Positions 3,739-39,092 of a stretch of DNA of 64,000 nt are shown here, piece by piece (position 1 is the stretch's first letter; every line of letters begins with the position of its first letter). The notes under the pieces are model-generated. The model was not told where the DNA came from, did not search any database, and saw only the letters and a program-made list of their open reading frames with translations. This DNA is from Octopus sinensis (Eukaryota). A program made the position numbers and the translations under genes. The DNA lies in the NCBI RefSeq assembly GCF_006345805.1, contig NC_043003.1, forward strand, positions 28,582,001 to 28,646,000, in the 5' to 3' direction.

Positions 3739-4106
3739 CTCTTTACTCTTTACCTTTTACTTTTTTCAGTCATTTGACTGCAGCACCGCCTTTAGTCGAG
3801 CAAATCGACCCCCAAGACTTATTCTTTGTAAGCCTAGTACTTATTCTATCGATCTCTTCTGCCGAACCACTAAGTTACGGGGAGGTAATCACACCACCAT
3901 CGGTTGTCAAACGATGTTGGGGGCACAAACAGAGACAAACAAACACATATACACATATACATACATACGACGGGTTTCTTTCAGTTTCTTTGGTCGGCCC
4001 GAGGCTATAGTTGAAGACACTTGCCCAAGGTGCCACGCAATGGGACTGAACCCGGAATCATGCGGTTGGTAAACAAGCTACGTACCACACAGCCACTCCT
4101 GCGCCT
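3738..4106 (-). mobile_element. SINE family A, near full length
   Basis: Reverse complement of family A from head AGGCGCAGGAGTGGCTGTGTGG to (GTAAAGA)n tail. Confidence 0.9.
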
Positions 4107-4120
4107 ATATATATATATAT

Positions 4121-4766
4121 ATACTAAGTAATTAAGGGTTTAGCAACGATTTGCCTCACCACACACCGAATTTAGAAATAGCAGTCAAAGAGTTATAGCT
4201 ATTCTTTCTACTAAAAGGGACATCTCAGTAAAACCACAGCACTTGAAAGGCAAACACAGACATGCAAGAGAGAAAGAAATGACGGCAATCTATCATACAA
4301 TTTTAAGTTACCTACGGACGTACGTTTCGAAATTAAGTTTTAGGAAAGCATAAGAATTAGATAATTATGTCTTACCCAACTTCTTTTCTCATCAGCGTAG
4401 GACACTACAATTATGAATAATTGTATATTAAATTTCGAGGTACTAGAAGGCATCATCTCAACTCAGTATCAGAGCGAGCTAAAGCCGTTACCAGTATCAC
4501 CAAATTCAAAGTGTGAATGAAAGTTTGTGTCACCAACCCCTTCCCACCAGCGTGCAGCTAAGACAAGATGTTGTGGTCATTTACTGGGATGAAATATGGT
4601 TATCAGTAATAATATAGGGTGAAATTAATTAATTTGGAATAATCATTCATTTCACTAAGTAGATTTCGGCATGTAAAAGCCTCATTCGAGGAAAGTTTAA
4701 GTAATACTAAGTAATTAAGGGTTTAGCAACGATTTGCCTCACCACACACCGAATTTAGAAATAGCA
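4121..4766 (-). mobile_element. Non-coding, terminally redundant hammerhead-bearing element (retrozyme-like / Penelope pLTR-like) in (TA)n
   Basis: Identical 63-bp direct repeats at 4121-4183 and 4704-4766 (period 583); (TA)n on both flanks; internal hammerhead at 4311-4401; no ORF. Confidence 0.75.
4311..4401 (-). ncRNA. Type I hammerhead ribozyme, canonical core
   Basis: Minus strand CCUACG-CUGAUGA-G...C-GAAAC-GUAC-GUC-CGUAGG: 6-bp stem I, long imperfect stem II, palindromic stem III ACGUACGU, GUC triplet. Confidence 0.85.
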
Positions 4767-5022
4767 ATATATATATATATACGTATATATATGTATATAC
4801 ACACATACACACATACATATATATATATATATATGGTAGCTGATGGGTAGATATGCTCAATACAGAAAACACGTTCGAAATCAAAATCCGAATTCTCTTT
4901 AAATGTATATATATGCACGCCTAGCTAGTGGGTTAACATCATTCGCAAGTTACAACAATACAATAAAGCACACTGCAATCTGCGGTGTACAGCAACATCT
5001 CATAGTTTGGTTGACACTGTGA

Positions 5023-5617: not shown

Positions 5618-5688
5618 TTACCTGAAGATTGACTGTAACCATAACTCGAATTATTACGAATTGTACAGCTATGAAACGATCGTAGTGT
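5618..5688 (+). ncRNA. Type I hammerhead-like motif
   Basis: UUAC-CUGAAGA-(CUGUA...UACAG stem II)-GAAAC-GAUC-GUA-GUG; palindromic stem III ACGAUCGU; stem I only about 3 bp. Confidence 0.6.
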
Positions 5689-5823
5689 TTTTCTCTTTAT
5701 CTTTTATTAAACTTTTAATACTTTTGATATATATTTAAAATAATATAAATTAATTAATTTTATGTATTGGCTTATGTTTTTCAATGTTTGATTTGCCTAA
5801 TAGTGGTTTTATCTCTAATTTTA

Positions 5824-6264: not shown

Positions 6265-6671
6265 TTCTCTTTTCTCTCTTTTACTTGTTTCAGTCATTTG
6301 ACTACGGCCATGCTGGAACACCGCCTTTAGTCGAACAAATCGACCCCAGGACTTATTCTTTGTAAACCTAGTACTTATTCTATCGTACCCTTTGCCGAAC
6401 AGCTAAGTTATGGGGACGTAAACACACCAGCATGGGTTGTCAAGCGATGTCGCGGGTGGGGGACAAACATACATACATACATACACAAACGCACATATAT
6501 ATATACATATATACGACGGGCTTCTTTTCAGTTTCCGTCTACTAAATCCACTCACAAGGCTTTGGTTGGCCCGAGGAAATAGTAGACGACACTTGCCCAA
6601 GTTGCCGCGCAGTGGGACTGAACCCTAAACCACGTGGTTGGTAAGCAAACTACTTACCACACAGCCACTCC
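6265..6671 (-). mobile_element. SINE family A, full length
   Basis: Reverse complement of family A including tail CAGCATGGCCGTAGTCAAATGACTGAAACAAGTAAAAG. Confidence 0.9.
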
Positions 6672-7842
6672 ATACACACATACATACATATTTATTTGTA
6701 TGGGACTACTTTGATCAATAATTAGAAAAGGAAAAATATTGAACGGTGACATGGATTCTCTTTGATCATAGATCTGCTCAATCCAGGCTGACCTGGGGTA
6801 AACAACAACAACAACGACAATAACAAGAACTGTTTTTATTTAACCTTAAAAATCAAACACAATATTATTACAAGTTAATATTTGTTTTTCTGGTTGTACT
6901 CTCTCTCCTTCTAAAATATAGATCAGTTTGTATAAACGCCATATGGAAAATAATAGCTTATATTTCATTCGCCTATATTATGATATGCGCCATATTGGTC
7001 CTTATTTACCATTTATCATATTCCTTGTTATGTTTCAACAAACTGCCTTGTCAAGACGAGGTTTTATTTTCAGTTGAAATATAGTTTTTATAACATCTGC
7101 GTTTGATTATTTCGCAAGAGAAGAACCATTTCCAAGGATCGTATTTTTCAGAATATGTCAGCTGGCTGTTACTTTCTATTGTTTATGATTCCTTTTATTT
7201 CTCTTTTCCCTTCTTTTTTTTCTTTTTCGTTCAAAATTTTTTTTTATTGATTTTATACAACTAGGATGTTGTATGTCAAGTAATAAAATAAGTTCTCAGG
7301 GAGCGGATGCCGCAACGCCTTTTCGATTCCCTTCACGGTGCGATTAATAACCTTGAGCAAATAAATATCTTTTACCATATATTCAAATACGAAGTCACGA
7401 GGTTCTACTTGCTCATATGTGGTAAACTTATTTCTCCCCACCCATAACACCTCTTGGTCCATCGATTACTTTAGTAGGGGCTGCTTTGTCGTAAGCATTT
7501 GGGTAAGATCTATATTTTGAGGATGCCCCCTATAACCCTTCGGTCACAGGATCCCCGAAAAAGTTCATAGGCACCGCCCTTTTCCTTATGGTCATAAAAA
7601 TAATTTTGAAAGTGATATTCGTTTTGAGCCAATGAAGGAGCCTCTACCTAATTGTTGAATCTGCTAAAAATAGAAACCAAATCACACTGGTGTCACAAGC
7701 TAATGTCTTTAAAACGGACATTGTAAATGATATTGTTTGGGGTTCAAAAAGGAAGAAAGAAACAGATCAGAGCGCTGTAGTGTGACGTACATTGATCATA
7801 GGTCAGCTCGTTCAAAGTGTTTATTGGGGCTAAACAGCCACA

Positions 7843-8771: not shown

Positions 8772-8975
8772 CTTCTTTTATTCTTTTACTCGTTTCAGTC
8801 ATTTGACTGCCAACCATGTTGGAGCACCGCCTTTAGTGGAACAAATCGACTCCAGGGCTTATTCTTTGTAAGCTATATTGGCCTTTTTTGCCGAAACGTT
8901 AAGTTACGGGGACGTAAACACACCAACATCGGTTGTCAAGCGATGGTGGGGGTGGGACAAACACACAAATACACA

Positions 8976-9017
<42 letters not shown>

Positions 9018-9220
9018 TATATATATATATATATATGACGGGCTTCTTTCAGTTTCCGTCTACCAAATCCATCCACTCACAAGGCTTCGGTCGGCCCGAG
9101 GCTACAGTAGAAGACACTTGCCCAAGTTGCCACGCAGTGGGACTGAACTCAGAACCATGTGGTTGGGAGTTTCTTACCACACTATGTGGTTGGGAGCTTC
9201 TTACCACACAACCACACCTG
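8772..9220 (-). mobile_element. SINE family A with a small internal duplication near the head
   Basis: Family A similarity; ATGTGGTTGGGAG.TTCTTACCACAC occurs twice at about 9157-9209. Confidence 0.85.
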
Positions 9221-12846: not shown

Positions 12847-13534
12847 CATACATACATACATACATACATAAACAATTAATAAACAATTTTCCTTGTAATA
12901 AACAATTTTCTAATAAACTCTAATAAACAATTTTCCTTGTATTGGAAATTTTCATCAAGATCATTTCCCTATGATAAAGAGAAATCCTTCTGCCCTTTTT
13001 GTACGGACGAACAACTATTTATCCTCTTTTTCACGCACACACTGGTCAACATCAAGAACATGTTTATAGGTGTTTACATTGGAAACACACTCAGCTATTT
13101 CAAATAATATCTACCACCTTACCTAATAATATCTGCAACTTAATCTTTATTCTTTCTTCCCATACCTCCTATTCTTTCCTTCATCTTTTCTATCCAGCTA
13201 TCATTTACTCTCCATTTGTTTATACCTATATCTCTCCTTTAATTCTCTTTCTCTCATTTTCTCTTCCTTCTCTTCTTACGTCGTCCTACGACGTCAAATT
13301 TCATAACGGTATTTTAAAAATTACTAACGTTCCTTATCCAACTTTGTTTTCCATATATGTATATATGTGTATGTATGTATGTGTTGTGTATGTATGTACG
13401 TATGTATGCATATAGGTATGTATATATTATGTATGCACATATGTGTGCTTGTATGTATGTATGCATGTAGTATATATGTATATGTATGTATATGTATATA
13501 TGTGTGTGTTGTGTGGTGAATGTGTGAATTTATT

Positions 13535-13576
<42 letters not shown>

Positions 13577-13628
13577 TATATTGAAGTTTCTTACATCTGT
13601 TAAAATGACTTATTGATGAGCACTGTTG

Positions 13629-13727
13629 TTTATATCCCCCTTGATGGGATTGATGCATTTTTCCACATTATTTTTTCTCACGGAATTATTTCAATGCATC
13701 TATCGAAACATATGTCGGTGATATAAA
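13629..13727 (+). ncRNA. Degenerate type I hammerhead-like motif in a (TA)n-flanked insert
   Basis: Stem I UUUAUAUC.CC / GG.GAUAUAAA, stem II GAUGCAUU...AAUGCAUC, GAAAC-AUAU-GUC; the CUGANGA box is mutated (CUUGAUGG). Confidence 0.5.
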
Positions 13728-13732
13728 TGATT

Positions 13733-13780
<48 letters not shown>

Positions 13781-28010: not shown

Positions 28011-28221
28011 CATATATATATATAAGTAGTTGAATGAATTATCCTAGTATGGATAATTCGGTTAACCGATACCCGGGTAGCAAATTCACGTCAGAAAACA
28101 CGGTTGAAGCTACATGCCCAGAGCAGAGATCACTTGCTTTCGTGTGGAAATTTGTGGTTTTTTTTTACTATAAATAAATGAAAGAATGGAGTTGAACGAC
28201 GATTTAACAAAATTCCTTTAT

Positions 28222-28302
28222 TCTCGACATATGTTTCGAAGACTGCATATTCCTAATTCCGAAGGAATAAGGGGTGCATCATGCTACCTTCTCATCAGGA
28301 AA
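28222..28302 (-). ncRNA. Type I hammerhead ribozyme, canonical core
   Basis: UUUC-CUGAUGA-GAAG...CUUC-GAAAC-AUAU-GUC-GAGA; palindromic stem III ACAUAUGU. Confidence 0.8.
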
Positions 28303-28872
28303 GACAAGGAACTTATGTCAGCATCATGACGAACAAAAACTTTTAGATGACTGCCCACACGGAGTCCATAGTGATAATGAGTGTTTCTTTAAAATATTCC
28401 GTTATAAACAGTGACGTCAAAATTGATTGAATTGAGAAGATTCTAGAAAGTTCAAGAGTTCAAAAAAGGTTGGAAGGGGAGAGTTCTAAGAATAGGAAGG
28501 TGACAGGGTGCAAGTCGTATGTATGGTGATGCGTTGTTGTTTGCTTATGCTAATGAGATTGAGTGCCTATGTGTGTGTATGTATATAACTGCATTCGTGT
28601 TTATGTGTGTGTATGTGTGTGCGTGATTGTGTGTGTGGGGGGATAGATGCCAAATAGTGGTGAAGTGACAGGTTTGTGTCTGTGTGTTTGATTGTGCTTA
28701 CGATAGAGAGAGGGAGAGAGAGAGAGAGAGGGAGAGGTAGAGAGACAAAGGTAAAACATACCCCAACGAATTTGGTAGTAGTCCTTCATGAAACGGAGTA
28801 TAAAAATTTGTCTATGGCGGTGTTGAAGAAGTGGAACCAAATTATTAAATTCAAGGTTATCTATATTAATCA

Positions 28873-29290
28873 TCATTTATATGAGTGGAAGGTGTGTTTC
28901 TGCCAGTGCATGCACCTATAGGATTTTTCTACCATTGTGTTTACTAAAGGGAATTTGGCGAAAAGTATATGGAAAAGTTCGGAATTACAGACGCCACAAA
29001 ATTTTCTGCCCTTATAAAACGGAAAGGATACAGACAATATGGACCATTCCAGCTTGAAGGTTATATTGCTGTCCTTAAGGCGTCAAACTAATTTACTTAG
29101 TCCTGTGCTTTGTTGTTTTCTCTTATCTCGGAAAGATGAATAATGATTGGAAATCCTCTGGGATAATTTAGAAGTAGTCGCCCCAATGTAGAAGAAGACA
29201 CCGGTACCGGAAGAAATTTTACACTGGTAAATGGAATTTCTAATTTTGGAATTGCTGGACAAGAACTTTAATCTGTTAGGGTTTACCTCC
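28873..29290 (-). pseudogene. Penelope-type GIY-YIG endonuclease domain, one in-frame stop at 29083-29085
   Basis: NSIYQCKISSGTGVFFYIGATTSKLSQRISNHYSSF...STGLSKLV*RLKDSNITFKLEWSIL...KFCGVCNSELFHIL...LVN...CMHWQKHTF: GIY/YIG, R..H and CxxC..E..I..N..CxH signature of PLE endonucleases. Confidence 0.85.
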
Positions 29291-29514
29291 GAGACTAAGA
29301 CGGAGTTTTTATTGTTATGATTGCTGTTAATATTATTGCTAGCACTGACCACTATACTATTCCTATTATTGTTATTATTATTAATTGTACTATCGCCGGC
29401 AATGTCCCTGACTATAGAAATGCTGGGGTTGTTATCATCAATACTACCACTGTTATTAGAAATGCTGTCGTTGTTGCCACTAACACTACGACTATATATA
29501 TATATATATATATA

Positions 29515-30622: not shown

Positions 30623-31914
30623 CGAGGGGCGTTCAATAAGTAATGCCCCTGACCCACTTCCCATTGCAGTAGAGCAACGAAACTTAGCACAGTTATTAGT
30701 ATTTTTCTACATAGGAATCACCCAGAGTTACGCATTTCTCCTATTGTTTGATGCAGCTCTGGAGACCGTTTTTGTAGAAGACCCCAGCTTGGTCCTCCAA
30801 CCACGACGTGACTTCAGAAATCAAGGCTACATCATCTGTGAAACGCTTTCCCTTCAGAAACAACTTCATGGCTGGGAAGAGGTGAAAATCAGAGGGTTCA
30901 AGGTCAGGAGAGTAGGGGGGATGGGGAGGAGTTCATAGCCGCACGCCTGTGCTTCTGATCTGGCGACACGCGAGTTGTGGACCGGAGCGTTGTCCTGCAG
31001 GAGGAGGATGCCTTTGCTGATCTTGCCCCGCCTCTTGATTTTGATAGCTTCTCTTAATTTCCTCAAAAGTGAAGCATAATATGCTCCTGTAATTGTGGTA
31101 CCCTTTGCCGGGAAATCTGTGATCACTACTCCGTCCTGGTCCCAGAAGACTGTGAGCATGTCCTTGCCAGCGAAGGGCTGCACCCTTGCCTTCTTTGGAG
31201 GAGGTGAGTCACGGTGCTTCCACTGCATTGACTGGGCTTTGGTCTCTGGATCATAGTGATGGACCCAGGTTTCATCCTGTGTAATCAGTCTTTTGAAAAA
31301 TGTTGACTCATCTTCTTGGCACATCTCCAAATTCATCCTCGAGCACTCGACGCTTTCTTGCTCCTGGAAAGGTGTGAGCAACCTGGGAATCCATCTGGCA
31401 GACACCTTTTGCATATGCAAATGGTCATGAATGATAGTTTCCACAGACCCGGTACTAATCTTGACCTGATGGGCTATTTGGCGAATTGTTATGCGTCGAT
31501 CTTCCAAAATGGCAGCCTCAACTTGACGGACAGATGCCTCATCAATGGCAGAAGGGGGGCGACCAGATCTTGGAGCTGTTTCCACAGAGTTCCGACCATG
31601 TTTGAATTCACGATGCCAGGGTTTTACAAGGTCATATGATGGGGCATCATCACCATAAGTTACTTTCATTTCATCAAATGTCTCCCGTGGTGTGCGTCCT
31701 TTCAAATACAAAAACCAGATCACTGCTCGACACTCAACAGGCTCCATTTCACACTTGACTCAGTTCAAACACCTGTAAATCAGAAAGCACAATTAGTTCA
31801 GGGCTGTAATTTGCCACTTAATCTATAGAGATATAAATAATTGCACAGACAAAATTTCAGCTAGATCAAACAACTGCAAGTGGGTCAGAGGCATTACTTA
31901 TTGAACGTCCCTCG
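30623..31914 (-). mobile_element. Full-length mariner DNA transposon (1292 bp), probably irritans/Hsmar2-like
   Basis: 37-bp TIRs CGAGGG(G/A)CGTTCAATAAGTAATGCC(C/T)CTGACCCACTT with 2 mismatches; TA target duplication at 30621-30622 and 31915-31916. Confidence 0.95.
30696..31747 (-). pseudogene. Mariner DD34D transposase with a 1-bp frameshift near 30922 and a premature TAG near 30742
   Basis: HTH region, WIPRLL, TQDETW, LQDNAP; after the frameshift HPPYSPDLEPSDFHLFPAMK...Q*EKCVTLGDSYVEKY*. Confidence 0.92.
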
Positions 31915-38255: not shown

Positions 38256-38477
38256 AATATATATATATATATTATATATATAGCATCCAAAGACAGCTAA
38301 TTCCTTTTAACTACAAATATTACTTCACAGACATTCGGTATGTGGTGAAGCAACTAATTATATATAAAAACACTTTTTGTGTAAGTTTTTACCGATAATG
38401 GTTTTTTCCACACCGAAACTACTTGGTAAAATTTATTAATTATTAAATTAATAATTCTTTACCCTATATCTGTAATG

Positions 38478-38518
<41 letters not shown>

Positions 38519-38625
38519 TATATTATATATATATACATAAAATAATATAGGCTAGCAAAATTATAGAATTTTTTCTACCAGTGGTCTAGCATGTATAAAA
38601 AGTCAATAGACAACATATTTTCCAT

Positions 38626-38995
38626 ATAAAATTAGTGTACATTTAAACATTTTAACAGGTCGCCTTATATGATAGAAGGAACAGTCAGAAGTCCAAGCCA
38701 CAGTTAAAAGCAATTTCGAAGGGAATGAAAAATAAAAGCATTTATCATGTTTTACAGCCGGACCTAGGTTTCGAAATATAATTAGCAAATAAAATAATTT
38801 GCTAAGCGAAGTTCTCATCAGCTAATTAAAGTTCGAAACCTAGGTCCGGCTGTAAAACATGGTAAATGTTTTTATTTTTCATTCCCTTCGAAATTGCTCT
38901 TAACTGTGGTTTGGACTTTTGACTGTTCCTTCTAGCATTTAAGGCGACCTGTTATGGGTCGCCTCTTTTTGTGTTTATATGTACACTAATTTTAT
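38626..38995. mobile_element. Fold-back Penelope-like pLTR; hammerhead core at the turn (38755-38821, minus strand)
   Basis: Arms 38626-38775 and 38832-38995 are reverse complements; minus strand CUGAUGA-GAA...UUC-GAAAC-CUAG-GUC. Confidence 0.75.
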
Positions 38996-39092
38996 GTGTG
39001 TGTGTGTGTGTGTGTGTGAAGTATTATTACTGTTAAAAACAGTAATAATGAGGTGACTAGCAAGACTTCTACCTAAGCAAGTATAATATGAA

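Follow-up and report, generated by a model that had tools for sequence, protein, structure and literature searches.

The systems closest to the element described here are the retrozymes of animals and the Penelope-like elements (PLEs). Retrozymes derive from the pLTRs (the non-coding ends) of PLEs, an origin set out in a 2026 preprint that also describes solo monomers and units of 51–972 bp and reports cleavage in vitro for one of nine Xenopus retrozyme dimers (bioRxiv 10.64898/2026.07.22.740005). The proposal that circles made by hammerheads are copied over more than one unit dates from 2014 for PLEs (PMC4209133) and from 2020 for retrozymes (PMC7229834), and more-than-unit cDNA from circles is the stated retrozyme model (PMC7229834; bioRxiv 10.64898/2026.07.22.740005). 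Because this kind of element and the circle model have already been described, the present element opens no new class.

Among PLEs, members of the Hydra clade are described as targeting (TA)n and bearing a 3' hammerhead, and they include an Octopus bimaculoides family, Hydra-1_Obim (PMC8557442). Naiad PLEs likewise target (TA)n and are reported in the same source as long inactivated in cephalopods. Partial tandems also arise in PLE clades without canonical hammerheads, namely Naiad and Chlamys (PMC8557442). Further, an Anolis PLE starts reverse transcription at two internal sites, which define an optional tail; its hammerhead mutants insert normally and none of the reads reported for it end at the cut site, so that cleavage appears dispensable there (PMC11167929). 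The choice between circular and linear templates is an open point in PLE biology. Our literature search, which did not extend to subscription papers, Repbase and some supplements, found no cephalopod retrozyme.

We analysed a window of 64,000 nucleotides (64 kb) from Octopus sinensis, to which all positions below refer. The locus at 4121–4766 is organized as follows.

4106–4123, no strand assigned: left (TA)n target, the TA tail of a common interspersed repeat (about 3740–4105)
4121–4703, minus strand: full non-coding 583-nt unit, the RNA sense being the minus strand
4121–4183, minus strand: 3' copy of the 63-nt repeat, whose end at 4121 is probably a recurrent start site of reverse transcription (site 1)
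4311–4401, minus strand: type I hammerhead with a 6-bp helix I, an intact core and a helix III of 2 bp plus a palindromic tetraloop; predicted cut at 4317/4316
4329–4388, minus strand: extended 60-nt helix II arm, a 4-bp base with G10.1-C11.1 followed by an imperfect hairpin (predicted −10.7 kcal/mol)
4602–4703, minus strand: optional 'tail' of about 100 nt, from start site 1 (4704 = 4121) to start site 2 (about 4602–4609)
4704–4766, minus strand: 5' copy of the 63-nt repeat, probably a second-round overshoot followed by 5' truncation
4767–4834, no strand assigned: right flank, an AT-rich microsatellite

The exact 63-nt direct repeat (4121–4183 = 4704–4766) recurs at a spacing of 583, and the insert of 646 bases therefore consists of one 583-base unit and a 63-base overlap, or about 1.1 units. 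(TA)n lies on both flanks (4106–4123 and 4767–4781) and masks any target-site duplication, and letters 4121–4123 are common to the left TA run and the first three letters of the repeat. These coordinates bear out the initial annotation, which had described an ORF-less unit bounded by an exact repeat within (TA)n. The unit has a GC content of 36% and a longest stop-to-stop frame of 69 aa, and none of 40 endonuclease/PLE-type proteins matches it (best tblastn E 0.029). It thus lacks the single ORF with RT and C-terminal GIY-YIG by which an autonomous Hydra PLE is recognized. No second copy of the unit is found by blastn within the 64-kb window. The repeat in whose tail the insert sits (3740–4105) is SINE-like and common, with further copies at 2088–2487, 6267–6695, 8774–9182, 51596–51931 and 52678–53069.

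Overall, we give a probability of about 70% to the following reading. The insert would belong to a many-copy family that has no ORF, a cyclic 583-nt unit and a predicted hammerhead; it would be a non-autonomous parasite of Hydra-type PLEs, with reverse transcription running a little beyond one pass of its RNA.

The predicted ribozyme is well delimited. Helix I pairs 4401–4396 with 4316–4311 and is followed by CUGAUGA (4395–4389), helix II (4388–4329) and GAAA (4328–4325); the helix III region is an 8-nt palindrome (4325–4318), with C17 at 4317. A strict hammerhead descriptor finds one match in the real window and none in 30 dinucleotide shuffles, and together with these positions it supports the intact minus-strand motif and predicted cut site as first annotated. 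The motif had also been likened to the minimal type, which does not hold: it has none of the min-HHR marks (an absent helix III, a helix I of 4–5 bp, an extra base before helix II) and instead combines canonical helices I and III with the long arm. The canonical metazoan form outlined in PMC4209133 agrees with it in helix I (6 bp), in the base of helix II (4 bp) and in helix III (2 bp, with a palindromic loop). The unusual feature is helix II, a 60-nt imperfect hairpin that went unremarked in the initial annotation. At the gathering score Rfam reports nothing in the window; when the threshold is relaxed to E up to 10 in the surroundings of the insert, the matches are of microsatellite type or weak chance ones, and no hammerhead is among them. 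Pattern scans for the motif in metagenome, viral and prokaryote collections gave no match or chance matches; candidate L001 was judged by eye, and L002–L004 do not extend past 22–30 nt. In helix II, a variant at 4331 and a loose end with a variant at 4386 may form a compensatory pair, but they are unphased and the pair was not counted.

Folding predictions bear on how such a ribozyme would act. The monomer is predicted to misfold, with a blocked fold 3.2 kcal/mol below the active form, while pairing of the 8-nt palindrome between two hammerhead copies is predicted at −9.8 kcal/mol. On these energies dimer cleavage would be the likely mode. As a separate observation, the minus-strand stretch 4311–4242, which begins at the last helix I base, is a 70-nt GT...AG segment with a pyrimidine tract. 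It could be a retained intron, as is known for Penelope, and is skipped by no joint among the contig joints.

The copy family was surveyed in contigs of four public sequencing runs, out of 24 listed, aligned to 4095–4790. Two DNA-labelled runs, which carry two organism labels, gave 3587 and 2373 aligned contigs, and the two others gave 347 and 106. None of the runs is recorded as RNA, and two that are guessed to be RNA were left aside as evidence of expression. Summed depth in the DNA-labelled runs is about 2e4 to 1e6, against 16–18 for two flank-bearing contigs; summed contig depth is not copy number, and we read it as many copies and nothing finer. For the same reason, depth steps near the hammerhead were discarded as evidence. 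The element is thus a many-copy family. Bridging was scored by a 31-letter rule among the 32 contig pieces listed, 6487 others lying outside the listing. The 4703/4704 junction is bridged by two of them, both from other copies with 16 differences each; the counts are two for 4604, three for 4183/4184 and one for the cut site. Since other copies bridge 4703/4704, the family sequence closes into a 583-nt loop and the junction at this locus is not local; the unit is cyclic.

The same order is preserved in a divergent relative within the window.

38283–38484, plus strand: divergent 5'-truncated relative between two (TA)n runs, aligning to 4763–4604 across 4704/4703 and ending at site 2

This relative was first seen as a weak nhmmer match (E 0.26) and was then shuffle-tested; its score of 103 is the best of 1260 tiles and is reached by none of 1000 shuffles. 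Because the relative and the other copies contain the same junction, the sequence order is ancestral. It is therefore very improbable that a local tandem duplication or an assembly artefact created the 63-bp repeat in a single-unit insertion, an account that also sits poorly with the varied right ends that are the rule across the family. In its favour are the identity of the two repeats and the lack of any listed contig reaching across all of 4121–4766. A single-copy or purely local origin, against which the initial annotation had wished to be checked, is likewise at odds with thousands of aligned contigs. No contig piece listed contains two units in tandem, the contigs being too short to reveal dimers.

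The ends of copies are patterned. Two contigs, which are records from other loci, start at 4121 (site 1) behind (TA)n and other flanks, and about 4605 (site 2) is the starting point, behind (TA)n, of one contig and of an additional loose end. Other copies re-enter (TA)n after 4149, 4189, 4229, 4249 and 4266 (among the 12 rows listed of 15), and we interpret these joints into a TA run as copy ends. Although few copies are seen, starts recur at 4121 and about 4605 while stops vary, and two recurrent 3' ends with variable 5' truncation are the PLE signature. The initial annotation had proposed an arbitrary start point, which stands for the 5' end only, and had suggested a test for circularly permuted copies with variable redundancy; copies do cross the junction and do stop variably, but they start at two recurrent sites. 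The two start sites (4121–4138 and 4601–4619) share a short motif on the plus strand, AGTAAT then AGGG, with TA-like letters first.

These ends also bear on the possibility that the insert is merely the pLTR of an autonomous PLE, doubly 5'-truncated and made up of a 583-nt piece and, at the 3' end, a restart of 63 nt. Such an origin would suit the distance of 193 nt between the hammerhead and the TA end, which is 201 nt in the Hydra remnant at 28 kb, as well as the restart-like joint (4227 to 4713) of one contig and the commonness of Hydra-type remnants in the window. However, the 4703/4704 junction is ordinary family sequence, bridged by other copies and kept in the divergent relative, the loop closes at 583 nt, and the unit contains no coding remnant. 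The share of contigs running on into unlike sequence (0, 0, 0.01 and 0.05 in the four runs) points weakly the same way, as contigs break at branches. We consider the truncated-pLTR origin rather improbable, and a non-autonomous family with its own cyclic unit accounts better for the junction.

The age of the insertion can be constrained loosely. Among the rows listed, the 4121–4766 copy departs from at least 95% of aligned depth at 7 or more of 520 non-redundant sites, differences that may stem from the donor or from a species difference. At a rate of 7/520, two 63-mers remain identical with a probability of 0.18, and their identity permits up to about 2.3% divergence per copy. A recent insertion of this copy is plausible, but it does not follow from the identical repeats, as had been proposed, given this permitted divergence and the sites that differ from nearly all contigs.

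The window further contains remnants of candidate mobilisers. Three GIY-YIG endonuclease remnants are present (12910–13104, 28876–29292 and 49402–49683), and together with further hammerhead-like motifs they form the following features.

28024–29292, minus strand: Hydra-type PLE remnant with a GIY-YIG C-terminus at 29292–28876 (one in-frame stop), a hammerhead at 28298 and (TA)n 201 nt past the cut
12910–13735, plus strand: Hydra-type endonuclease remnant, followed by a decayed motif with the helix III palindrome of the element at 28 kb
49402–50130, plus strand: Hydra-type endonuclease remnant, followed by a hammerhead-like motif at 50030 with a 59-nt arm, 20 nt before (TA)n
5622–5690, plus strand: hammerhead-like motif with a 44-nt helix II arm, 144 nt before (TA)n, no linked ORF
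14630–14686, plus strand: hammerhead-like motif with a 31-nt helix II arm, 262 nt before (TA)n, no linked ORF

The remnant at 28876–29292 matches Pfam GIY-YIG weakly and below the cut-off (E 0.0015), and its best protein match, named from Octopus sinensis, is 89% identical. By eye it resembles the Hydra-1_Obim endonuclease in the supplement of PMC8557442. Its relatives carry a CxCx5C-type linker and a CxxC..E..N..CxH pattern, the combination given there for Hydra PLEs (PMC8557442). The 28298 hammerhead has an intact core, a 4-bp helix I, a 54-nt helix II arm and a palindromic helix III. Under relaxed criteria, six hammerhead-like motifs are found in the 64 kb against one match in 60 block shuffles; their helix II arms are 31–60 nt, their helix III palindromes differ, and Rfam reports none of the six. 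Adjoining the divergent relative, 38622–38997 forms an inverted repeat in head-to-head orientation (82% across about 390 nt) with a hammerhead-like motif at its centre (38821, minus strand), an arrangement of the inverted 5'-truncated type described for PLEs. Other repeats in the window include a tandem duplication of about 430–450 nt at 97% identity (56906–57773), what we take to be a mariner-like transposase frame (30866–31759, plus strand) and, presumably, an RTE-like LINE remnant (42179–43230, plus strand).

The region of the element after the predicted cut has no similarity to the Hydra remnant at 28 kb (z −1.3) and is marginally similar to two other window motifs (z 1.9 and 2.2); no link to an autonomous partner was found among the remnants tested in the 64-kb window, nor to a named family. 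Autonomous PLEs that share the target preference are represented by the three Hydra-type endonuclease remnants and Hydra-1_Obim, with remnants alone and no intact partner seen. Given the Hydra-type remnants and (TA)n targeting here, and the long inactivation of Naiad in cephalopods, the Hydra clade is the likely mobiliser and the candidate partner. The suggestion in the initial annotation that a Penelope-like RT/GIY-YIG protein acts in trans is accordingly a likely one, in view of the Hydra-type remnants, the (TA)n target and the PLE-type ends.

A mechanism consistent with these features can be proposed. Read-through transcription of more-than-unit copies would give minus-strand RNA, in which two hammerheads could pair through the 8-nt helix III palindrome and excise 583-nt monomers, which a host ligase may circularise. 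A PLE protein would then act in trans, nicking a (TA)n run and priming internally at one of the favoured positions (4121 = 4704, or about 4605), possibly aided by 3 nt of TA microhomology. Reverse transcription would mostly halt early and leave short 5'-truncated copies, whereas at 4121–4766 it would have made one full turn and a further 63 nt.

The nature of the template is less certain than the cyclic unit. Partial tandems occur in PLE clades lacking canonical hammerheads and an uncut multimer would leave the same trace, so the 63-nt redundancy does not establish a circular template. We place a ligated circle at a little under even odds, regard an uncut linear multimer as a less probable yet serious candidate, and think a template jump improbable. 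The predicted circle fold is more stable for the minus strand (−138.5 kcal/mol; z −3.4, 40 shuffles) than for the plus strand (−112.3 kcal/mol), with long helices predicted to flank the ribozyme and one helix to enclose start site 1. The predicted pairs are not significantly spared by family variants: of the 40 listed, with 77 further variant rows outside the listing, 9 break one, against 12.6 expected (P 0.076), and none of these 40 rows has both-sided changes at them. A conserved helix across the junction was set aside, as the two-sequence consensus fold with the relative picks a different helix from the single-sequence fold. At four positions on which the family is divided (4129/4712, 4133/4716, 4150 and 4164) the two 63-mers agree, which suits one template molecule, although identical adjacent units would give the same agreement.

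The same family and mobiliser could operate with no circle at all, through a linear read-through transcript that stays uncut and comes from a donor in tandem or longer than one unit, the hammerhead being dispensable or acting later. The normal insertion of Anolis hammerhead mutants, with no reads reported as ending at the cut (PMC11167929), and the partial tandems of Naiad and Chlamys (PMC8557442) lend this weight, as do the predicted block of the monomer and, weakly, the absence of a pile-up of ends at 4316 among the contig rows listed, contigs being all that this count covers. However, linear copying would shorten copies each round and need a supply of more-than-unit donors, the agreement of the 63-mers at family-split sites leans mildly against it, with the reservation just given, and the mussel retrozyme is reported to accumulate as circles (PMC7229834). 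We judge a circle-free history unlikely, without dismissing it, and slightly-more-than-unit copying by a Hydra-type PLE fits either template. Similarly tentative, and in our estimate doubtful, is the fullest version of the circular reading: an abundant 583-nt circular RNA of rod-like fold, with hammerhead and reverse transcriptase entry site at opposite tips, mobilised by Hydra PLEs as a dispersed octopus retrozyme and belonging to an octopus-wide class whose 30–60-nt helix II arms escape Rfam and short-loop descriptors. If that version were true, its hundreds or more dispersed copies with two fixed start sites would make it possible to test directly, on genomic sequence, whether partial tandems of PLEs stem from circular templates. 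In a family this dispersed and polymorphic, checking the redundant ends of many copies for identity could tell a circular template from a linear one. The element also adds a probable cephalopod example of the PLE-derived, retrozyme-like kind, points to the Hydra clade as mobiliser, and lies in a window dense in long-armed hammerheads.

Compared with metazoan non-LTR retrozymes as described in PMC7229834 and bioRxiv 10.64898/2026.07.22.740005, the octopus element is likewise non-coding, below 50% GC and present in many copies. It shares a type I hammerhead with a short palindromic helix III (here as structure only) and a self-paired predicted circle with PLEs alongside. It shows no PBS/PPT-type LTR, as judged by its PLE-like varying ends. 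Its 583-nt unit is outside the range of about 170–400 given in PMC7229834 and inside the 51–972 of the preprint (bioRxiv 10.64898/2026.07.22.740005). The locus has 1.1 units and one ribozyme, whereas two or more hammerheads in tandem characterise an 'active' retrozyme in that preprint. It also differs in its 60-nt helix II arm and its recurrent start sites in (TA)n, and its cleavage and circle are predicted ones, whereas the mussel retrozyme is reported to accumulate as circles (PMC7229834).

With Hydra-clade PLEs, including Hydra-1_Obim (PMC8557442), it shares the (TA)n target and a canonical-type hammerhead in the 3' part, but it has no ORF and its hammerhead sequence is unlike that of Hydra-1_Obim; the Hydra loop II regions listed in PMC8557442 are 3–10 nt, against arms of 31–60 nt in the octopus window. 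The resemblance extends to non-autonomous PLEs such as Chlamydomonas MRC1 (PMC8557442, PMC11167929, PMC3846280), with which it has in common microsatellite targets, a partial tandem whose upstream copy is 5'-truncated, 3' ends that recur, and two start sites of reverse transcription with an optional tail in between. The tail is about 100 nt here and 30–40 nt in the known PLEs of these sources, and most Chlamys elements, unlike this one, are described as lacking canonical hammerheads (PMC8557442). As in non-autonomous PLEs, there is no ORF, copies are dispersed and numerous, the pLTR forms a partial tandem, and the 3' ends recur with an optional tail. Judged from these features, the element would work like an animal non-LTR retrozyme and carries the tested marks of a non-autonomous PLE derivative save a link to a named partner. 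It is best read as a PLE derivative that is non-autonomous and retrozyme-like, and whose RNA template, circular or multimeric, was copied over a little more than one unit.
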